Origin: a virus
Strand: one strand, 5' to 3'
Length of the DNA stretch: 64,000 nt
IMG/VR virus record: IMGVR_UViG_3300011432_000001
Coordinates: 1-64,000 of that record
The notes beneath the pieces were generated by a model. It did no database searches, was not told the origin of the DNA, and worked only from the letters and a program-made list of their open reading frames with translations. Shown here one piece after another: positions 3,032 through 15,623 of this stretch (position 1 is the stretch's first letter; each line of letters opens with the position of its first letter). The position numbers and the translations under genes are program-made.

Positions 3032-3366
3032 GATTTATTGGTTAGATCGCAATAACTCCAAAAGCTCAGCAACCCCTATAATATCGACTAAGTTACGGAG
3101 TCATGACCGTGGCCGAATGCGATAGGGAATTCATGACTCCTTATATTCCACATGTGGTATTTGCCTAATGGGAATGAAGGGGGTTGCTGCTTAATGGTTG
3201 ATTCTAGATAAACTGGTGTGGGACTGCACCTTGATTCCGGGCTAGCCACGGATAAAGGACCTAACACCAAATGATGCTGGCCGACGAGCTAGAGCTGTTG
3301 GGGGATTGGGGAATATTCTAGACCCTATAAGAACCGCGACGCATTTGAAGAGAAAAGGACGGGATT

Positions 3367-3771: not shown

Positions 3772-3922
3772 AATTTTTGAACTCAGGTTGCGCGGTAGCA
3801 TGTACAAGGAAATAAGTGATGAACTTGGAATAGACATAGAAACAGTACGTGAAGTTATTGAGGTGGAAATTCAAAGATTGGAAAGAGAAAATGTATCTAG
3901 TGACAGTGAAACTGCCGAGTGA
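3668..3922 (+). CDS. small HTH DNA-binding protein (sigma-70 region-4/LuxR-like helix-turn-helix); real start probably a GTG near 3764
   Basis: Motif LRLRGSMYKEISDELGIDIETVREVIE is a typical region-4 HTH; the 5' part overlaps the previous ORF in another frame. Confidence 0.45.
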   Translation: MSPIVVPSPFRNGRLQVAQKLPVPNAKRRWLKVNKIFELRLRGSMYKEISDELGIDIETVREVIEVEIQRLERENVSSDSETAE

Positions 3923-4097
3923 TCTTAATCATGACCCACACAATAAAGTAACAGGTAAGTGTCCAGTACCGTTTAATTTCGAGTGTACTGATGTGACTGG
4001 TCAGCATCACACTTTTCTTTCCACAGTGAATTCTAAGCAAGATGTTATAGACAATTGGGGTAATGAATTCCACATCACTAGGATAGAGGAAGTATGA
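3849..4097 (+). CDS. hypothetical protein (likely start ATG at about 3891, after aaagagaaa)
   Basis: ORF. Confidence 0.4.
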   Translation: MKLLRWKFKDWKEKMYLVTVKLPSDLNHDPHNKVTGKCPVPFNFECTDVTGQHHTFLSTVNSKQDVIDNWGNEFHITRIEEV

Positions 4098-4291
4098 TGG
4101 TTAAACACATAGATGGCGTTATCTATGGTGACGTTGTTTATGACGAAAGAGGAGATAGATATTATTTCCTGTGTGAGTGGTGCGAAACTGGTATTCACGG
4201 AGGACCCAATAGTGAGAGCTTTGTTATCATCAAAGCAGACCAGCACGAACAAGAATGCACGGCCAAACCAAATAATAAAACGGACACGTAG
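4094..4291 (+). CDS. hypothetical small Cys/His protein
   Basis: RBS ggatagaggaagtATGATG; CEWCE..H motif. Confidence 0.5.
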   Translation: MMVKHIDGVIYGDVVYDERGDRYYFLCEWCETGIHGGPNSESFVIIKADQHEQECTAKPNNKTDT

Positions 4292-4345: not shown

Positions 4346-4621
4346 GTGCCCTTTAGTCATGGAGATACAATGCCAACACTAAATAAGGGTAGTAGGACAG
4401 AATTTCCCAAGGGTGGACTGTACGCTGAGGGTAGGATGAAAGCTGGCCTCACTATTAGTAATGGTGGGGTAGCCGATGCCACTTTGGGAGTAGCATTTGA
4501 GAGGGCTGGCCATGAATTCCGTAGAGAATTCGGCCGCTGGCCGGACTGGGAAAAGATCTTATTTCGCGGATCTTTCGTTACGGGTGGCGCAGTGGTTGAA
4601 ATCTGTGAGCCACAGGATTAG
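4346..4621 (+). CDS. hypothetical protein
   Basis: ORF. Confidence 0.5.
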   Translation: MPFSHGDTMPTLNKGSRTEFPKGGLYAEGRMKAGLTISNGGVADATLGVAFERAGHEFRREFGRWPDWEKILFRGSFVTGGAVVEICEPQD

Positions 4622-6247: not shown

Positions 6248-6436
6248 ATGGGTGTACAGAAGAATGTAAGCCACGATGAATTTCCAGAACAAGGTATGAA
6301 TTTTGGTAAACGATGTGAAGTTGTATTCAACTATGATCTTCGCAACATTTTGATGGGTACTATTGTCGGAGATGATAGAGAAGATCCGTACATCACAATA
6401 ATTCGTCTGAACGACGGACGGTACGTAATGGCATAA
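6248..6436 (+). CDS. hypothetical protein
   Basis: RBS gaggtagaaacaataATG. Confidence 0.45.
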   Translation: MGVQKNVSHDEFPEQGMNFGKRCEVVFNYDLRNILMGTIVGDDREDPYITIIRLNDGRYVMA

Positions 6437-6438
6437 GA

Positions 6439-7464
6439 ATGCCAATATTCTCCGGAGTCATAAATGTACGAAAATCCAAAGTTATAAGGATTGAAAGTTG
6501 TGAGCGGAGTTTCTGTATGGGAACTCCAATCGGAGCGTTCAATTCGGAACGTCCATATAGAATAGAGAAAATAGTGCTTTGGCTGATCTTTTTGATCGTC
6601 CTTTCGATAGTGGTCATCATTCTAGGATTCGCTGTCGCGCAAAGGAATGAGAATGAGACATATCCAGTCCAAGGATTGGTGACGGTTCTCATTCTCATGC
6701 CTGTTTTGTGGTTGGCATTCTCGTTTACTGCGGTAGACGCCAACTCTCAGGAAGTAAGAACTTCATTCGGAAAACCGACTGGAGTCATTGGCAACGGTCC
6801 ACATCTTGTTGCTCCATGGAGCACAGGAACGCCATTCTCCAGCGCAAGACAGTTCATCGTGTTTAAGGACAAACCAGGTGAGAATGAGCAACCACGAATT
6901 GCCTCCCGTCTTGCTGGCCAGGCTACTGCTGATGTCGAAGGTGTTGTTAGCTATACTCAGCCTTCATCTAAGGTGATCGAGCTGTTCAGAAGCTGGAAGA
7001 CTGAGGATCGCATTCGCAATCTTTTAGTTTTCCAAGAAGCTAAAGGTGCTTTGCAAGAAGCACTAGGTACGTTCGACCCTCTGGCCGAAGATAAGCAGAA
7101 GGAAGATGTTTACTCTTTCTACGGCGCAGAGGCAACCAATAAATTGAACGCAAGACTTGGTGGTCTGCTCGAAGGAGTTAAGATCACCATTGGCTTCATC
7201 GATTACGATACTGGTACCGATTCCAAGTTGGCAGAGCTTCAGGCTGCCCGCGCGGAAACTAAGGTTGCCACGCAGAAACTTCTGACTGCGGAGCAACTTG
7301 CATTGGCGAACGAGCGTATCTCCAGGTCGCTTTCTAGTGATCCTGTTGTGGCGTTCTATCAGTGTACAGCGATGTGGACTGAGGTTGTTGCCAAGATGAA
7401 TCCTGTACCTGCCAACTTCAGTATCTCTGGTATCTGTGCTAATACCATCGGCGCAGTGAGGTAA
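6439..7464 (+). CDS. membrane-anchored SPFH/band-7 (prohibitin/HflK-like) domain protein
   Basis: N-terminal TM helix LWLIFLIVLSIVVIILGFAVA followed by an SPFH-like domain with an Ala/Gln/Glu-rich coiled-coil tail (AELQAARAETKVATQKLLTAEQLALANERI). Confidence 0.5.
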   Translation: MPIFSGVINVRKSKVIRIESCERSFCMGTPIGAFNSERPYRIEKIVLWLIFLIVLSIVVIILGFAVAQRNENETYPVQGLVTVLILMPVLWLAFSFTAVDANSQEVRTSFGKPTGVIGNGPHLVAPWSTGTPFSSARQFIVFKDKPGENEQPRIASRLAGQATADVEGVVSYTQPSSKVIELFRSWKTEDRIRNLLVFQEAKGALQEALGTFDPLAEDKQKEDVYSFYGAEATNKLNARLGGLLEGVKITIGFIDYDTGTDSKLAELQAARAETKVATQKLLTAEQLALANERISRSLSSDPVVAFYQCTAMWTEVVAKMNPVPANFSISGICANTIGAVR

Positions 7465-9875: not shown

Positions 9876-10247
9876 ATGAACGATAGAGATAAAGTCGTTG
9901 ACGTAAGTGAGGAATTCCAAAGGCTACATAATGCTTGGATGATTCACATATACGAACATGAGAATGGCGCAAACGTGCATCTTCACGCGCCACCAGCGGT
10001 AGTGTTGGCAGCCTCTAAAATTTTCGAATCTTCGATGGTCGATGATGATGAGTCATTCGATGTTTCTGACTGGGACACACCGTGCATGACAACGCCAAGA
10101 GATATAATCGAGTACGGAACCAAGCTGTTCGAGTTTGGACAACGCACTGCAATGGCTGGGATTTTTGCAGCTAACATGACACCGTGCAGATGCACAGAAA
10201 TAACGGACGAAGACATAGCCAAACTGATGGGTGACAAACATGATTGA
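9876..10247 (+). CDS. hypothetical protein
   Basis: RBS aaggtgagaaacggacaATG. Confidence 0.5.
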   Translation: MNDRDKVVDVSEEFQRLHNAWMIHIYEHENGANVHLHAPPAVVLAASKIFESSMVDDDESFDVSDWDTPCMTTPRDIIEYGTKLFEFGQRTAMAGIFAANMTPCRCTEITDEDIAKLMGDKHD

Positions 10248-10413
10248 GGATGGCTGGGAGCAAGTTGGACCCATCGAGGTTCACACTACGGATGGAATCG
10301 TTAGCGTTCGTGCAGCAAGCGATAAACTTGGTGACGAACTCGTTCTAGATCGATCCGAATGGACAGAGCTAGTTCGTCTGGCCAAAGAGGGAAGCCTAGA
10401 TCATATCTAATAG
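10240..10413 (+). CDS. small ORF (57 aa, MIEDGWEQVGPIEVHTTDG..), translationally coupled (ATGA overlap)
   Basis: Read from sequence; below the ORF-track size cutoff. Confidence 0.3.
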
Positions 10414-10600
10414 GTAGGAATCCTGCTAGTGCTAATGCCTCCATCCCCCCGGATCCTAAGCACAAGTGGTCACCACAGGGCAGGTATGTCTGTAGGGGTT
10501 AGGCAGACAATAAATGTCGTCCCATGCTAGTCTTGGGAGTAGCATGGTACGATGGGATAACCAGTACGGTATCGATGTAGAGGTATTGGTTATCCACAAC

Positions 10601-10671
10601 GCGGGGTAGCTTAACAGCAGAGCACTAGGCTCATAACCTGGAAGATGTGGGTGCAAATCCCATTCCCGCCA
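10601..10671 (+). tRNA. tRNA-Met (CAT) or tRNA-Ile (lysidine)
   Basis: Good D-arm (GCTT/AACAGCA/GAGC), perfect anticodon arm CTAGG-CTCATAA-CCTGG, T-arm GTGGG-TGCAAAT-CCCAT; the acceptor stem has one register irregularity. Confidence 0.5.
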
Positions 10672-10699
10672 CGAAAGAAATGCCGTGTCACTGCGGACT

Positions 10700-12150
10700 G
10701 GTCAACGTTCTAGACTGAATAAGAATCGGTTATCTTATTGGAAGAGAACTTTTCCGATTCTAAATCACACGTTTGGAACCCAAAACGTGATGGCGTATGG
10801 TATCTAGGGAGATCCTAGAACGAAACTCGCGTAAGAGGGTGCATGAAACAAAGCCATCACATCTAAAGCTTGCTGCTGAGCCCGCCGCGAGAAAAGTGTT
10901 AAACTGAATGAGTTCGTTTATCTTGATGGTTCAACTCCACCTATCTCCTTGGGAGATATCGCCTAATTGGTTAGGGCGTAGACGAACACAACAAACATGT
11001 TTGACACTCACAGGAGGTGAAGAAATGGGCGAGGGCTGGATTGTTGTCTGGTAAATAGACGTAGTACTGGACTGATAGTAATTGGTTATCTGGAACAAAG
11101 GGTCGCAGGTTCGAGTCCTGCTCAGCTGAATTCCGGCTGGTAGCTTAGTTGGCAGAGCATTTGTATGCCGAAAGGCTCTCCGATTACATCCCATGTTCGG
11201 TACTTTAATTTGGGTGAGACGGTCTCTTTCAAGTGTGACTATATGGTTTCGAATAGCTCCGTGGTGCGTGCCAACTATCCGAAATGAGTGAGTAGAAACT
11301 GATGTCATACTTGCCGTCTCACCCATGCTAAGCAAGATTGTGGACTGAATAGTATTGGTTATCGGCATTGTATATTCCAATACTGACTCACATGTTCGCA
11401 AGCAAAAGCCTGTCGGGGGTCGATAGGGAAAGTGAAAAAGTATCAGACTGAATGTTGATTGGTTATCAACTGCAAATTGAAAGCCGAGGTAAGTCGGCTA
11501 AGTTCCGATCGACTATCACATGTTTGATACCAAGTGGCTATGGTGCAATGGCAGCACAACAGACTTCCACTCTGTTAATCTGGGTTCGAGTCCCAGTGGC
11601 CGCTCTTTGGGTGGTTGTCTCAATAAGTCCCGGCGTCTAGTAGTGTGGTTTAGCTGGGTTGCGAGACAATCAATTCAGGCTAGCGAAAGCTACCGTACTA
11701 CACTACAACGGAAAGCGGCTGGACCTGTAAGGTGAGTGGAATACTAGTTAGAAACTCACCTCCCATTAAATTTAATATTGTGGACTGATGTGAATTGGTG
11801 ATCGACCGTCAACGTCATATTGTCTAGAGGTAAGTGCCTTATTCCTACTAGCAGATCCGATTTACACTCACATGTTCGCAATAACAAAGTGTCGGGCGAG
11901 GAACGGTCAGGTAACCGTCACCTGACTCGCCTGGCTCCAACTTAACAATTGTAGACTGAATTGAAATCGGTTATCTTGCCAGAAAGCTGCGGAACTAAGA
12001 GCCCGCAACCATTCCCTATAAAGGAGTGTCCCGATTTCTTCAACATGTTTGCAATCTAAAATATCACCCTTTTGGGATGGGTTGTTGGACTGATATTCAT
12101 TGGTTATCATTCCCTCTTGACGAATAAAATATCCGATGAAGTTTCCATGT
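10700..12150 (+). repeat. array of 8 dispersed copies of a conserved structured element: RGACTGAW-N8-YGGTTATC (A), then a covarying 8-9 bp hairpin, then CACATGTTYGMAA (B)
   Basis: A-boxes at 10711, 10901, 11069, 11341, 11444, 11781, 11952 and 12085. The 3' stem arms covary: AGAATCGG/CCGATTCT, AGTATTGG/CCAATACT, GAAATCGG/CCGATTTC, GTGAATTGG/CCGATTTAC, GTTGATTGG/CCGATCGAC, TTCATTGG/CCGATGAA. There are no credible ORFs across the island. Confidence 0.6.
11534..11604 (+). tRNA. tRNA-Gly (TCC)
   Basis: Full cloverleaf: acceptor GTGGCTA/TGGCCGC (2 GU pairs), D GTGC-AATGGCA-GCAC, anticodon arm ACAGA-CTTCCAC-TCTGT, T arm CTGGG-TTCGAGT-CCCAG. Confidence 0.7.
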
Positions 12151-12171
12151 TCGACACACTAAAAGGGGTCA

Positions 12172-12375
12172 ATGATGCAAGAAGTAACAATTCTTTACGG
12201 CGTTGACGGTGTTGTGAAGAAGAAAAAGATTAAAGCTACAAAGATTACTGCTCAAATGGACGTTGACGGCACAAATGTGAACGCATCCGCAGATGGAACA
12301 GATGAAGATGGACCAATAATCTGGGTCCTCTTCAAAGATGCATATATTCTAGAACTACGTCCTGTAAAGGATTAA
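12172..12375 (+). CDS. hypothetical protein (Lys-rich)
   Basis: RBS aaaaggggtcaatgATG immediately downstream of repeat unit 8. Confidence 0.5.
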   Translation: MMQEVTILYGVDGVVKKKKIKATKITAQMDVDGTNVNASADGTDEDGPIIWVLFKDAYILELRPVKD

Positions 12376-12609
12376 GCTCCAGCCTGCGTAACCTCACAAA
12401 TTGTAAGGTGACTCTTCGACAGTCTAACTTGCATACGTGATTGGTGGCTACAGCCCGTGAGGTAGTTACGGCAATATCGGGTGCTCAACTCCAAGGGTGC
12501 GACAGCCTAAGGATATGGTGGAAGTTGTGGAGGATTCCTCTGTCGCGCTAAATACGGTACAATAAAAGCTTACGGCAGCAGAGTTTGATCGCCATTAGAG
12601 AGGCATATC

Positions 12610-13740
12610 ATGAGACTCGACCGTAGGCATTGGACAGCCCTCGTAGCAGGATTGGCCACAATCGTAATTGGCTTTTCAACAAGTACAACGTCGGTAGGTA
12701 ATTCTGTCGAGACGATAGACGACCAAGCCGTGATGTATAGGGCTTGCACTAGTCGTCTCGGCGAAACACAAAAGCCAATGACCCCAGAGGTTTTGGCATT
12801 TTTGCGTAATTGTGAAGAGGCTTTTGCGCCAAGTTCACCACCAAGTGAAAGTCCATCTGCATCTCCCACAAGTAGTCCTCCCACAAGTAGTCCTTCTGCA
12901 AGCCCTTCTGTAAGTCCTTCTGTAAGTCCTAGTGTGTCACCAACACCAAGCCCAACCCTGCCAACAGCGGAGTGCCCTCCGCTACCAGCATTTCCTGATG
13001 AGAATTGTACAGGTTACAGGCATACTGGCGTAACATTGACATCGTGTCCAAGGCAATTGAATGTTGCAAACGCTACATATGACTCCTGTCGTTTCGATGG
13101 TAGTATTACCATTGCTGCGGATAACATCAAAATCACACGTTCGCTAGTGAACGGCGGAGTTGTCAACAGCGTAAACGGAAACAACCAAATGCGTGGATTG
13201 CAGTTGACTGATGTGGAAATTCTCGGCGCAACAGGGACAGATCAGCTAGCTGCGATTGGAACTGAAAATTATACTTGTATTAGGTGTCACATTCACAAAA
13301 CGTATAGAGGTTTTGCACTCGGGAATAACGTTAGGATAATAGATTCATATTCACATGATTTCAGACGTCAACCCGAAGCACACCAGACAGCAGCTAGTAC
13401 TCACGGTGGATCCAATGTTTTCATTGATCACTCAAGACTACGTTGTGAGAGTGACAAATACGCCTGTTCAAACGGCATATCTTTCTACGCAGCAAACTCT
13501 AATATCAACAATGTGACAATTCAGAACAGTCACATTTCGACCGACGCCGGATATGGAATCGGATTCTTTTATCTGAACCCTGGTAATGGAAAACCTTACA
13601 ACGTATTCAACACTAAGATTCTGAACAACGTGTTCGGCTCTTGGGAATATGGTATGCGCGCCAATTGGATGGGTACTCGGGACGGTAACGTTTGGTCTGG
13701 TAATACACAAGAACCATTCGATCCTGTTTGTAGATGTTAA
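12610..13740 (+). CDS. secreted protein with a Ser/Pro/Thr-rich linker and a C-terminal right-handed beta-helix-like (pectate-lyase-like) domain
   Basis: Signal peptide MRLDRRHWTALVAGLATIVIG; linker SPSASPTSSPPTSSPSASPSVSPSVSPSVSPTPSPT; repeated NVxIxNSHI / NVRIIDSYSHDF beta-helix-like turns. Confidence 0.55.
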   Translation: MRLDRRHWTALVAGLATIVIGFSTSTTSVGNSVETIDDQAVMYRACTSRLGETQKPMTPEVLAFLRNCEEAFAPSSPPSESPSASPTSSPPTSSPSASPSVSPSVSPSVSPTPSPTLPTAECPPLPAFPDENCTGYRHTGVTLTSCPRQLNVANATYDSCRFDGSITIAADNIKITRSLVNGGVVNSVNGNNQMRGLQLTDVEILGATGTDQLAAIGTENYTCIRCHIHKTYRGFALGNNVRIIDSYSHDFRRQPEAHQTAASTHGGSNVFIDHSRLRCESDKYACSNGISFYAANSNINNVTIQNSHISTDAGYGIGFFYLNPGNGKPYNVFNTKILNNVFGSWEYGMRANWMGTRDGNVWSGNTQEPFDPVCRC

Positions 13741-13809: not shown

Positions 13810-13884
13810 CTAGGTATAGCTCAGCTTGGTTAGAGCACTGCGTTTGGGACGCAGAAGCCGCAAGTTCGAATCTTGCTACCTAGA
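13810..13884 (+). tRNA. tRNA-Pro (TGG)
   Basis: Perfect cloverleaf: acceptor CTAGGTA/TACCTAG (C1-G72 as in bacterial tRNA-Pro), D GCTC-AGCTTGGTTA-GAGC, anticodon arm CTGCG-TTTGGGA-CGCAG, T arm GCAAG-TTCGAAT-CTTGC. Confidence 0.8.
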
Positions 13885-13988
13885 CGATACACAAAGACTC
13901 CCCTTTGAGCGGGCGGAGAATGGGGCAACACTTGACGCCAATTGAGTGTTGTCCCAACCATGTTTCCTACGGAGACTAAAGGAGCAAA

Positions 13989-15623
13989 ATGTCAGACTAT
14001 CTTACTCGTCATGTAACTCGTGACATTCCTCAGACTGAGAAGGAAAACCCGTTGCAGATAGCAAACTCTGCTGGTGGTTTCTCTTTCGAAGTTGATAAGT
14101 GGAAGCGACTTGAGCGATTCCTTATTCTTGGTTCCGAAGGTGGTACTTACTACATCGGTGAAAAGGACCTGACTAAGGAAAATCTCGACAACCTACGCAA
14201 CCTTACGCAGGAAGATGGCAAAGAGGTTGTAGCCCTGGCTGCGAACGTCTCAACTTTCGGTCGTTCTTACAAGAACAATGCTGCTATCTTCGTTTTGGCT
14301 TTTGTCATGACACATGGTAGCGATGAAGTTAAGTCGTTTGCTCGTGGCATGGTGGATCAGATTGTGCGTACTTCTACACATCTGTTCACGTTCGAGAAGT
14401 TCTTGAAGGCACTAGCTCCTGGTACGGGTTTGGGAACCTCCCGAAACCGCGCCATCGCTGCGTGGTATGAGGGGAAGACGACTGAGCAGCTTGCTTACCA
14501 GGCTGTGAAATACCGGCAGCGCGAGGGATGGACGCATCGCGATTCAATGCGTCAGTCGCGTCCAAAGGGTATTGACCCTGCCCTAGGTAATTGGATTCTA
14601 GGTAAAAACGATGGGCAGGCTTTTGATGTTCCACAGATCGTTCAAGCATTCGAGATCGCTCAAAAGGTAGGTAACGTCAAGGAACTTTTGAACACACTTG
14701 AGGTTTACACAAACCTTCCTTGGGAAGCCCTTCCAACTCAATTTCTCAAGAACGCCGAGGTATGGAAGAAGCTTTTCTACAATGGGCAGCTCAATGGTCA
14801 GGCGTTGGTGCGAAACATCACTCGCTTGGCTCGGCTTGGAGCGTTCGAAGATCTTGTGTTCGCACACGACTACGCTGCCAAGCTCACCGACACTGAGATG
14901 ATCCTCAAAACCAAGCTGCATCCTATCAACTACTTGAATGCTGTTACGGTTCACGTAGAAGGACAGGTTCAACGGCGTGGTGACGGTGGAGGGTATGGTT
15001 ATTATGGTCACGGTGGACGCAATAGGGATTGGACTACTTCTTCAATCATCGTTGATGCATTGAATGCTGGATTCCATTTGGCTTTTGTCAACGCTGTGCC
15101 ATCCAACAAGCGCACCTTGCTAGCCTTGGACGTCAGTGGTTCAATGAGTTCGGCAATGGCACTTGGTCTGGACCTAACGGCTGCTCAAGTAACAGGCGCG
15201 ATGGCCACTACCATTGCCAAGGTCGAGCCGTACCATCGGATTATGGGATTCGCAAGCGAGTTTCGTGATTTGGGTATTTCAGCGAACATGTCCTTGTCAG
15301 AGGTAACCAAGCGAGTTCAAGATATGAACTTTGGAACTACGGATTGTGCTTTGCCAATGACTTGGGCAATGCAAAACAAGTACGAGTACGACACGTTCAT
15401 TGTCATGACTGACAATGAAACTTATCGAGGTTCTGTGCACCCGCACATGGCTTTGCAGAAGTACCGTCAAGCAACGGGGATCAATGCGAAGTTGATTGTC
15501 GTTGGCGTAGCAGCTAACGATTTCACTATTGCAGATCCCAATGACGTTGGCATGTTGGATGTGGTCGGTGCGGACAGTAACTTGCCAAAGCTGATAACGG
15601 AATTCAGTAAGGGAAATCTTTAA
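13989..15623 (+). CDS. rsr: Ro60 orthologue (Rsr): TROVE domain plus C-terminal von Willebrand A domain
   Basis: 544 aa; N-terminal TROVE-like region; C-terminal vWA with MIDAS LALDVSGSMSS; RBS aaaggagcaaaATG. Confidence 0.75.
   Translation: MSDYLTRHVTRDIPQTEKENPLQIANSAGGFSFEVDKWKRLERFLILGSEGGTYYIGEKDLTKENLDNLRNLTQEDGKEVVALAANVSTFGRSYKNNAAIFVLAFVMTHGSDEVKSFARGMVDQIVRTSTHLFTFEKFLKALAPGTGLGTSRNRAIAAWYEGKTTEQLAYQAVKYRQREGWTHRDSMRQSRPKGIDPALGNWILGKNDGQAFDVPQIVQAFEIAQKVGNVKELLNTLEVYTNLPWEALPTQFLKNAEVWKKLFYNGQLNGQALVRNITRLARLGAFEDLVFAHDYAAKLTDTEMILKTKLHPINYLNAVTVHVEGQVQRRGDGGGYGYYGHGGRNRDWTTSSIIVDALNAGFHLAFVNAVPSNKRTLLALDVSGSMSSAMALGLDLTAAQVTGAMATTIAKVEPYHRIMGFASEFRDLGISANMSLSEVTKRVQDMNFGTTDCALPMTWAMQNKYEYDTFIVMTDNETYRGSVHPHMALQKYRQATGINAKLIVVGVAANDFTIADPNDVGMLDVVGADSNLPKLITEFSKGNL

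Follow-up and report, generated by a model that had tools for sequence, protein, structure and literature searches.

A phage RNA island upstream of a Ro60 gene contains eight tandem units that resemble Y RNAs

What does a phage genome keep in more than 1.7 kb of sequence that encodes no protein? The question is raised by an island in IMG/VR virus record IMGVR_UViG_3300011432_000001, of which we analyzed positions 1 to 64,000; this whole 64,000-nucleotide (nt) stretch, a tailed-phage genome, is called the window here, and all its coordinates refer to it (Table 1). The initial annotation described the island as highly structured and as holding two canonical tRNAs, tRNA-Met and tRNA-Gly. This description agrees with our fold z-scores and with the structure conserved in related genomes. 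It also expected further noncanonical tRNAs or tRNA-like RNAs; one tRNA-like RNA is indeed present, but the dominant content is eight units that resemble Y RNAs. The organizing principle of the island, an eightfold repeat of one scaffold, and its link to a nearby gene for Ro60 had both been missed. We consider it highly probable that the island consists of eight Y-RNA genes in tandem, which serve the adjacent phage Ro60 and are interleaved with tRNAs.

The eight paralogous units, U1 to U8, all lie on the + strand, interleaved with tRNA-Met and tRNA-Gly, and measure 68 to 142 nt. They share the scaffold GGACUGA ... GGUUAUC ... CAUGUUYG, and the boxes that recur across them in the DNA read GGACTGA ... 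ATTGGTTATC ... CACATGTTYG. In each unit, the 5' and 3' ends form a 10-bp terminal stem ending in GAC/GUU; a conserved UGA stands opposite a 3-nt CAY bulge; and a 9-bp upper stem is followed by an invariant UUAUC and then by a variable, paralogue-specific apical domain. The pattern ACTGA-N5-10-YGGTKATC has seven matches in the 64 kb, all within the island and on the + strand, where 0.03 would be expected; repeat analysis recovered the eighth copy, which is degenerate (GTTTATC). CAYGTTYG is found 47 to 121 nt downstream of every A box. The unit starts are irregularly spaced, 103 to 337 nt apart, and neither the pattern search nor a covariance model (R1) found copies of the scaffold elsewhere in the window. 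Model R1, built from the trimmed scaffold, recovered the short-insert units only (U4, U1, U8, and part of U5) and was superseded by a pairing-based Python scanner.

Folded separately by minimum free energy (MFE), the eight units all show one two-helix architecture, with z-scores from -2.3 to -4.6: a terminal stem of 8 to 10 bp, an asymmetric internal loop, an upper stem of 8 to 9 bp, and an apical domain of 11 to 87 nt. The scaffolds were aligned manually by structure, in fixed-length blocks anchored on invariant motifs, which replaced a free-gap MAFFT alignment that had misplaced gaps within stems. Both helices are supported by covariation. Among the 8 paralogues (alignment A3), 92.8% of cells are paired, compared with 72.5% in shuffles (0/500) and 29 to 43% when the partner is slid by 1 to 3 columns, and both sides have changed in 11 of 19 pairs. 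With 32 units from four genomes (alignment A4), the corresponding values are 87.9%, 71.0% (0/500), and 27 to 43%, and both sides have changed in 13 of 19 pairs, in 111 cells. The helices of this larger alignment include near-invariant G.U (30/31) and U.G (25/31) pairs. They therefore form solely in the + strand transcript, which argues against any DNA-level explanation.

Downstream of the island, on the same strand, lies an orthologue of Ro60/Rsr. Its product matches the Pfam families vWA_Ro60 (5.5e-62) and TROVE (1.5e-30) and, over its full length, the PDB entries 2nvo (Deinococcus radiodurans Rsr, 6.6e-87), 1yvp (Xenopus Ro60, 3.6e-83), and 9nen (human RO60, 1.6e-80); it also matches the NCBIfam family Rsr (3.3e-120), at 402 bits and hence under the equivalog cutoff of 900. 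Y RNAs are the obligate partners of Ro60, yet they are hard to find outside animals. In bacteria and phages, their genes share a strand with Ro60 and are no more than 4 kb away from it, and at least one Y RNA per species is tRNA-like (PMC4201824). The units of the island (10706-12158) fall within this distance, 1.8 to 3.3 kb upstream of Ro60 on its strand (U8 at 1.8 kb and U3 at 2.8 kb), and the arrangement is repeated in three related genomes. They also have the form of a Y RNA, with the two ends paired in a long stem that carries a bulge and with a variable loop, in a size range that compares with ~80 to 130 nt in the definition.

A further link to known Y RNAs comes from the apical domain of U3. 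At permissive thresholds, the Rfam model for YrlA (RF02553) matches positions 11079-11189, within U3, with 42.1 bits (E of 2.3e-7), and the U3 orthologues score 36.6 to 39.2 bits. From the outside in, U3 consists of the lower stem, the upper stem, UUAUC, and an anticodon-like stem, ACAAA/UUUGU. The first strand of this stem (ACAAA, 39-43-like) is followed by GGGUC, a T-arm (GCAGG-UUCGAGU-CCUGC, with UUCGAGU as the T-loop), a 7-bp acceptor-like hairpin (UCAGCUG-aauuc-CGGCUGG), UA, a D-arm with GG in its loop (GCUU-AGUUGGCA-GAGC), A, and the UUUGU strand; a GCC-GAAA-GGC hairpin completes the unit. The order is permuted, running from the anticodon-like 3' strand through the variable region, T-arm, acceptor-like hairpin, and D-arm to the anticodon-like 5' strand. 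Unguided RNAalifold on the four U3 orthologues recovered the T, acceptor-like, D, and anticodon-like helices (42 pairs, 10 of them compensatory), and the compensatory changes fall in the anticodon-like, T, and acceptor-like stems. These arms form a circularly permuted tRNA-like domain of YrlA architecture. The initial annotation had located the T-arm correctly (11105-11121) and the D-arm to within about 5 nt (it lies at 11143-11158); it was right that the two form no standard tRNA, but they do assemble, in permuted order. The apical domain of U2 is probably a second, weaker module of this kind, made of a T-arm-like piece (GAUGG UUCAACU CCACC), a variable hairpin (UAUCUCC-uug-GGAGAUA), and a D-arm-like piece (CGCC UAAUUGGUUAG GGCG). 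Its orthologue in one relative, L127, gives a weak Rfam YrlA match (25.9 bits, E of 0.19), and U2 of the window gives none at an E value of <10.

How well is this architecture maintained? A blastn search of the island against 50,697 phage records matched the tRNAs alone; therefore, there is no close cultured relative. A search for Ro60 homologues, which number more than 7,500, led to three syntenic relatives. These genomes, L125, L126, and L127, have Ro60 proteins that are 76, 74, and 78% identical, respectively, to that of the window, and in each of them a DUF2786 gene, two small open reading frames (ORFs), an ORF-free island, tRNA-Pro, and Ro60 follow one another in this order. The islands align end to end: the upstream element, tRNA-Met, U1 to U5, tRNA-Gly, an element of ~160 nt, an extra YrlA-type unit that the window lacks, and U6 to U8. 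The three relatives have 9, 9, and at least 6 units, and subthreshold Rfam YrlA matches fall on the U3 orthologues, the extra unit, and one U2 orthologue. The apical modules of U2, U3, U6, and U7 are 0.60 to 0.86 identical to their orthologues, compared with 0.48 to 0.58 to any paralogue (for U6, 0.79 to 0.85 compared with 0.58 to the best paralogue); thus, the paralogues keep distinct, maintained modules. The orthologues of U4 are 116 nt long and carry a T-arm-like apical module, which has therefore been lost from the copy in the window.

Units of the same design occur beyond this clade. In the Stanwilliamsviridae, Streptomyces phages with a Ro60 that is ~52% identical, they lie upstream of Ro60 in the variant GGGU-CGA ... 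GGUUAUC ... AU-AUCC. Mycobacteriophage Bxz1 belongs to a phage group for which YrlA RNAs have been reported (PMC4201824); by eye, it has three units in the 480-nt gap before its Ro gene, of the form AGGC-CGA ... GGUUAYC ... CAU-GUCU. Such Y-like units are unannotated in the phage records of Sham, Tomas, and Bxz1. In Sham (ON645339, our locus L003), a 62-nt tRNA-Ser(cga) annotated at 4141-4202 sits, by eye, inside a Y-RNA-like unit with a T-arm (4133-4270) that reads GGGTCGG...GGTTATC...ATATCC; the annotated gene looks like a misannotated tRNA-like Y-RNA domain. We ran the scanner on 80 IMG/VR Ro60 loci and eight others, namely, the window region and seven further loci. Of the units it reported, 214 lie on the Ro60 strand and 35 on the other, and shuffles yielded 10; most loci have 1 to 5 units, and counts of 8 or 9 are limited to the clade of the window. 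Since the scanner requires a GKTKAYC box, divergent lineages are undercounted. When YrlA-type units were sought without the UUAYC box, by a signature running from T-loop to D-arm, UUAYC stood upstream in 38 of 72 matches; by eye, matches preceded by the Ro-site motif mostly have UUAYC, and most of those without it resemble tandem canonical tRNAs. A pattern scan of the collection with GACTGA-N6-9-TTGGTTATC was uninformative, as it returned at least 120 single chance matches.

If the units are Y RNAs, the following scenario may be proposed. The island and its tRNAs would probably be transcribed jointly, as one precursor, and tRNA-processing enzymes would cut it, with RNase P at tRNA-Gly generating the 3' end of U5. 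This end lies 2 nt before tRNA-Gly, and L125 has an identical 2-nt junction. No promoter or intrinsic terminator was detected on the + strand of the island in a scan limited to sigma-70-type signals, a result that is consistent with a processed polycistronic precursor and is no proof of it. In D. radiodurans, Yrn2, tRNA-Asp, and Yrn1 are cotranscribed (PMC4201824). Each Y RNA would then bind the Ro60 ring on its outer face through the GGACUGA/CAUGUUY helix, and the differing apical modules would tether Ro60 to differing partners or substrates or else gate its cavity. Host PNPase and tRNA-recognizing enzymes are candidate partners; the Ro60 of phage phiLo binds two phage Yrl RNAs and host PNPase (PMC12135203).

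Several points weigh against this interpretation. Expression, processing, Ro60 binding, and effector roles are deduced from architecture and precedent. At two specified positions, GGACUGA does not fit the bacterial consensus GNCGAAN0-1G, so that recognition by Ro60 is assumed by analogy. The YrlA score of U3 lies below the Rfam gathering score of 69, the threshold for membership in the family, and the other seven of the eight units have no Rfam match at an E value of <10. The hand-built, motif-anchored alignments favor pairing somewhat, a bias that the slide and shuffle controls argue against as the cause of our result, and the orthologous units do not count as independent of one another. The scan for promoters and terminators, as stated, was confined to sigma-70-type signals.

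Other explanations must be weighed against the same evidence. Structured repeats in such a setting could be the punctuation of a tRNA operon, i.e., processing or stability elements for host RNases, or spacer hairpins, unrelated to Ro60. Interleaving with tRNAs, the 2 nt between U5 and tRNA-Gly, the lack of internal promoters and terminators in the sigma-70-type scan, and the presence in the island of stem-closed hairpins that lack the Y motif would all suit this role. We nevertheless find it unlikely, as it leaves eight units to punctuate just two tRNAs and does not account for paralogue-specific apical modules conserved between genomes, for a YrlA-type tRNA mimic in U3, or for units of the same design that cluster by Ro60, on the Ro60 strand, in dozens of divergent phages; moreover, the motifs are laid out as they are at the Ro60 site in known Y RNAs (PMC4726728, PMC4201824). 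A reading of the unexplained parts as additional noncanonical tRNAs, as the initial annotation suggested, or as degenerate tRNAs or tRNA pseudogenes draws on the canonical T-arm and D-arm of U3, and one could add to it the T-arm-like modules of U2 and of several units in the relatives as well as the tRNA-Ser(cga) annotation of Sham, which by eye overlaps one unit. It is very improbable given that ARAGORN and the Rfam tRNA model detect canonical tRNAs only, that the arms are permuted without an anticodon loop, that a loop closes the acceptor-like stem and leaves it without a free 3' end, and that nothing tRNA-like is seen in six of the eight units.

Finally, the repeats might act as DNA, as miniature mobile elements, integron attC-like recombination sites, or repeated phage promoters or operators, and the recurrence of short boxes (GGACTGA, GGTTATC, and CATGTTYG) at irregular spacing is what one might expect of these. 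Such a role is hardly credible when the conserved G.U pairs would be A.C mismatches on the other strand and when pairing is preserved by compensatory changes over 60 to 140 nt. Moreover, all copies lie on one strand, in an order that is syntenic between genomes rather than scattered, with none elsewhere in the 64 kb, and neither the flanking genes nor the ten large ORFs scanned gave any integrase or transposase context. Irregular spacing, nonpalindromic boxes, and these same features of strand, synteny, and confinement to the island also set the units apart from CRISPR arrays, attC sites, and miniature inverted-repeat transposable elements, the hallmarks of which are, respectively, identical repeats at regular spacing, imperfect palindromes that have RYYYAAC/GTTRRRY cores and come with an integrase, and terminal inverted repeats in dispersed copies.

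An array of Y-RNA genes next to Ro60 thus remains our preferred reading, and the leader of the Ro60 mRNA raises the question of whether the protein also recognizes its own message. Within this leader, the hairpin at 13959-13979 reproduces the terminal helix of the Y RNAs (GAC/GUU) and its flanks, CAU and UGA/UAA, in circularly permuted form: a triloop closes what are free ends in the Y RNA. The hairpin abuts a Shine-Dalgarno sequence, AAGGAG (13979-13984), ahead of the ATG at 13989. A second hairpin (13922-13955), which carries the conserved loop GACGCCAAU, could stack on the candidate operator and replace the upper stem. Eight leaders, which come from 7 genomes, retain the hairpin, and one of its pairs is compensated; its sequence resembles that of the local Y units in several lineages. 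Namely, CUU replaces CAU in both in the L129-L131 clade; in L001, L140, and L142, the leader reads AU-AUCCC...GGGGU-CGA and the Y units read AU-AUCC/GGGU-CGR; and GAGC-CGG is common to both in L141. Within 60 nt of the start, 40 of 77 distinct Ro60 leaders have a hairpin with YRR after it, compared with 14% of random windows. This lineage-specific matching is convincing by eye in several clades. In an exact 5-mer test, 9 of 68 leaders (13%) matched their own Y units, no better than the 11% found across loci and 5.5 times the value for random windows, and the sequence pattern taken alone, CAYGTT-N6-16-ACTRA, is not rare, with 3 matches where 1.6 would be expected; therefore, we keep the operator as a hypothesis only.

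Under this hypothesis, phage Ro60 would repress its own translation through a permuted mimic of the Ro site in its leader, a possibility to which, from sequence comparison, we give a little less than even weight. Titration of this repressor by the eight Y RNAs would make Ro60 synthesis track the supply of Y RNA. Autogenous translational operators that mimic the primary RNA target of a protein occur in ribosomal-protein operons and in phage T4 for RegA and gp32. The leader hairpin is like them in copying the Ro-site helix and its flanks and in abutting the Shine-Dalgarno sequence; it is unlike them in that its resemblance to the Ro site is statistically modest. In the literature searched, no paper proposes Ro60 autoregulation through a Y-RNA mimic; within that literature, this would be the first regulatory circuit for Ro60 synthesis, if real. 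Similar hairpins followed by CGA or CGG precede Ro60 at many other phage loci. In L125, the module of leader hairpin and Shine-Dalgarno sequence is duplicated (6308-6380 and 6579-6650), with one copy before an inserted ORF of 77 amino acids (aa) and one before Ro60.

Table 1. Coordinates of the features of the island and the Ro60 locus in the window
Feature	Position	Strand	Remarks
ORF-free RNA island	10413-12171		Bounded by the stop codon of ORF 10231-10410 and the ATG at 12172
Upstream element	10413-10599	+	5' domain, hairpin CCCAUGC...GCAUGG; aligned in 4 genomes
tRNA-Met (anticodon CAU)	10600-10672	+	ARAGORN; Rfam tRNA 54.9 bits; orthologues in L125-L127
U1	10706-10780	+	75 nt, short apical loop; motif and pairing; R1 34.9 bits; z -3.1; orthologues in 3 relatives
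Stem-closed hairpin GUGAUGGC/GCCAUCAC	10787-10860	+	z -3.2; between U1 and U2
U2	10895-11008	+	114 nt; UUUAUC instead of UUAUC; z -3.2
U3, YrlA type	11063-11204	+	142 nt; Rfam RF02553 match; four-orthologue RNAalifold
Long hairpin	11211-11325	+	12-bp perfect closing stem UGGGUGAGACGG/CCGUCUCACCCA; inverted repeat I9; z -6.4 (11208-11328 folded)
U4	11336-11403	+	68 nt, minimal scaffold; R1 46.1 bits, E 2e-10
U5	11439-11531	+	93 nt; z -4.6
tRNA-Gly (anticodon UCC)	11534-11605	+	ARAGORN; Rfam 62.9 bits
Element after tRNA-Gly	11606-11770	+	Closed by GGG/CCC; stem GGUUGUCUC/GAGACAAUC; terminal hairpin GGUGAGU/ACUCACC
U6	11776-11883	+	108 nt; GGUGAUC variant
G+C-rich hairpin CGGGCGAG...CUCGCCUG	11891-11935	+	z -2.75; window-specific insertion between U6 and U7
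U7	11947-12056	+	110 nt; z -3.8
U8	12081-12158	+	78 nt; R1 32.9 bits
Further noncoding stretch	12376-12609	+	Separated from U8 by the 67-aa ORF 12172-12375
376-aa ORF	12610-13740	+	Between Y-RNA array and Ro60
tRNA-Pro (anticodon UGG)	13810-13885	+	ARAGORN, Rfam; between island and Ro60 gene; syntenic in relatives
Ro60 mRNA leader	13898-13988	+	~90 nt, highly conserved in four genomes (alignments A10 and A12; MFE fold)
Candidate operator	13959-13979	+	CAU-GUUUCC-uac-GGAGAC-UAA (UGA in relatives)
Ro60/Rsr orthologue, 544 aa	13989-15623	+	TROVE and Ro60-type vWA domains

Apart from the units, the island holds no credible ORF over its whole length (10413-12171), as the initial annotation had claimed. 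The minus-strand ORF 10931-11401, which it had set aside as spurious, does look so: it and three other island ORFs have no significant match in Pfam (best E of 0.062, well short of the cutoff), it overlaps three + strand RNA genes backed by covariation, and no ORF is called at the equivalent spot in the syntenic relatives. ARAGORN and Rfam place tRNA-Met and tRNA-Gly within 1 nt of where they had been described. By ARAGORN and the Rfam tRNA model, a canonical cloverleaf with an anticodon loop is formed by these two and by tRNA-Pro, which falls outside the range covered earlier, and by none of the U units; ARAGORN found neither a transfer-messenger RNA nor an intron-containing tRNA. Two of the helices noted at the outset are real and conserved: CATGCTA/TAGCATG (10524-10547) and GGTGAGT/ACTCACC (11731-11760) both show compensatory changes in the relatives. 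Of the other two, TGTCTG/CAGACA is present at 10487-10509, but RNAalifold does not predict the helix (by eye, in the four-genome alignments, the relatives show CTGG/CCAG there around an invariant TAGGGGTTAGG), and the hairpin CTAGC-GAAA-GCTAC exists at 11680-11693 but has just 4 bp and is not conserved. The island is thus more than two tRNAs in unconserved surroundings, because its structure is conserved in relatives.

Some of the tRNA genes have features of their own. In tRNA-Met, the 1:72 pair is mismatched, as in an initiator, and the atypical T-loop UGCAAAU is unique to the window, with UUCGAAU in the relatives. ARAGORN calls a tRNA with anticodon UUA, of the ochre-suppressor type, ~300 nt upstream of Ro60 in L126 (5733-5804) and L127 (5664-5735), and the window has no counterpart. 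Two extra tRNA-like inserts of the relatives are likewise absent from the window: a tRNA-like gene in L127 (3309-3377; Rfam tRNA, 34 bits) with an apparent 5-nt anticodon loop and an element of ~110 nt in L126 (about 3165-3275) and L127 (about 3822-3930) with a T-arm ending GGGCACCA.

Further structured elements flank or separate the units. RNAalifold on four genomes gave 41 pairs (11 compensatory) for the upstream element and 30 pairs (14 compensatory) for the element after tRNA-Gly, from alignments in which two of the four sequences are nearly identical. The former includes a 13- to 14-bp hairpin, GGAUAACCAGUAC/GUAUUGGUUAUCC (10555-10595), that ends 4 nt before tRNA-Met; it base-pairs the GGUUAUC box, which is single stranded in the Y units, and this pairing is compensated and conserved in all four genomes. 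The terminal hairpin of the latter has an invariant loop motif, AUACUAGUU. According to the island alignment, the hairpin at 10787-10860 is missing from the relatives and is a window-specific insertion. By eye, the long hairpin at 11211-11325 shares the loop motif GUGGUGCGUGCCAACUAU with a hairpin of L125 (about 4535-4605), and a second family of stem-closed long hairpins, starting with UUGRRUGRRA, lies between Y units in the window and in L125 to L127. Also by eye, a 9-mer, GAGGUAAGU, is common to the apical hairpin of U5 and to U6, and the apical module of U7 includes a conserved hairpin, CAUUCCCUAUAAAGGAGUG in the window. In the noncoding stretch at 12376-12609, ~100 nt (12445-12546) are 86.5% identical in pairwise alignment to the sequence past the last Y unit in L126 (GGCTACAGYCCGTGA...CCAAGGGTGCGACAGCCTAAGGATATGGTGG; blastn E of 5e-28). 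Rfam gave no match at an E value of <10 for this stretch, for the upstream and post-tRNA-Gly elements, or for the long and inserted hairpins.

As for the neighboring genes, the ORF at 12610-13740 has no relative in Pfam, PHROG, or PDB, and NCBIfam gave a spurious low-complexity match only; the three syntenic relatives lack it at this position, and it is therefore an apparent window-specific insertion. The 67-aa ORF has no relatives in Pfam, PHROG, NCBIfam, or PDB. The window encodes a terminase, a Mu-like portal, a tape-measure protein, PolA with a UDG domain, and an SNF2 helicase, at a G+C content of ~45%, and its DNA polymerase is <33% identical to that of any cultured phage.

What would an array of this kind add to the understanding of Ro60? 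Only the tRNA-like YrlA class of Y RNAs is detectable by homology, and the others were found by immunoprecipitation, in three species (PMC4201824). The signature RGNC-YGA ... GGUUAYC ... CAU-GNYY picks out tRNA-like and other Y RNAs alike. Eight or nine paralogues with distinct conserved modules in some uncultivated phages offer a natural set for asking which module goes with which partner, and the position of a Ro60/Y-RNA module among phage tRNA genes points, speculatively, to RNA quality control or to the hijacking of host exoribonucleases. The shared UUAUC and its spacing make homology of phage Y RNAs, animal Y RNAs, and nematode stem-bulge RNAs (sbRNAs) directly testable. We tentatively entertain, with rather more doubt than belief, a joint reading in which the units retain the whole metazoan signature, with GGNCYGA as its 5' motif, UUAUC is ancient, and phage and animal Y RNAs are homologous, combined with self-regulation of Ro60 through the permuted mimic. 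If this were true, UUAUC would be an ancient feature of Ro60 ribonucleoproteins, shared by phage and animal Y RNAs, and not a eukaryote-specific DNA replication motif.

One of the closest known systems is YrlA (RF02553; Chen et al. 2014, PMC4201824). Like the units, YrlA RNAs lie near Ro60/Rsr on one strand and form a long stem from their 5' and 3' ends, and the permuted domain of U3 shares with them the T-arm, the loop-closed 7-bp acceptor-like stem, the D-arm with GG, and the anticodon-like stem. The units differ in their 5' motif, GGACUGA as opposed to GNCGAAN0-1G; in having UUAUC after the upper stem, where the Rfam consensus has AUGCuugg; and in that one, perhaps two, of the eight are tRNA-like. 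The polycistronic Yrn2/tRNA-Asp/Yrn1 locus of D. radiodurans resembles the island in its interleaved tRNA genes. YrlB of Salmonella Typhimurium and Mycobacterium smegmatis, Yrn2 of D. radiodurans, and Yrl1 and Yrl2 of the Thermus phage phiLo are likewise extra Y RNAs beside a tRNA-like one, with a stem-bulge-stem form and a small or idiosyncratic loop, and are thought to allow Ro60 complexes with differing partners (PMC4201824, PMC12135203). The number of Y RNAs is about two at those loci, in contrast to eight here and nine in relatives; each unit here has a conserved apical module to itself. Furthermore, while bacterial Y RNAs that are not tRNA-like "eluded bioinformatic discovery" (PMC4201824), the island units are recognizable by a shared signature. 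What is new with respect to these systems is the divergent Ro-site motif, the number of paralogues with distinct conserved modules, the invisibility of most units to Rfam, and the metazoan-like UUAUC signature.

Metazoan Y RNAs and nematode sbRNAs (PMC4726728, PMC4450293, PMC5331234) offer a further comparison; bacterial Y RNAs have been described as nonhomologous to the vertebrate clades (PMC4726728). There are differences: the units have no oligo-U/La tail and no RNA polymerase III promoter; no bulged C is evident in them, and in several MFE folds the partner of the UGA is a UCA that lies upstream of the CAY bulge; and their upper-stem sequence is unconserved, with no GUG-CAC. In vertebrates, the Ro60 site consists of a 7-bp helix in which a C is bulged and the opposite strand carries a 3-nt bulge (PMC4726728), and UUAUC is conserved at the 5' end of the loop domain in nematode sbRNAs and vertebrate Y RNAs (PMC4450293, PMC4726728); GGCUGGUCCGAUGGUUAGUGGGUUAUC is the published sequence of an hY4-derived fragment (PMC5331234). 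The units share the layout of the 5' motif (GGUC-CGA in vertebrates and GGAC-UGA here), the 3-nt bulge on the opposite strand (CAY on their 3' strand), the UUAUC directly past the upper stem, and a modular design with a variable loop. RGACUGA is nearly invariant among them, equals AGGCCGA of the Bxz1 units in length and position, and matches five of the seven bases of vertebrate GGUCCGA. In the literature searched, there is no report of a UUAUC motif in bacterial or phage Y RNAs; it is invariant in the units of the window, and UUAYC is found family-wide (L001, L003, L128, and many IMG/VR loci). The similarity may stem from homology or from convergence on Ro60, and we prefer neither. Its spacing is also alike: the distance from motif to UUAUC is 17 to 18 nt in the units (GGACUGA-N10-11-UUAUC) and 18 nt in the hY4-derived fragment, GGUCCGAUGGUUAGUGGGUUAUC (PMC5331234). 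Judged by these sequence features, the units of the island appear to be, as far as we are aware, the most metazoan-like of prokaryotic Y RNAs.

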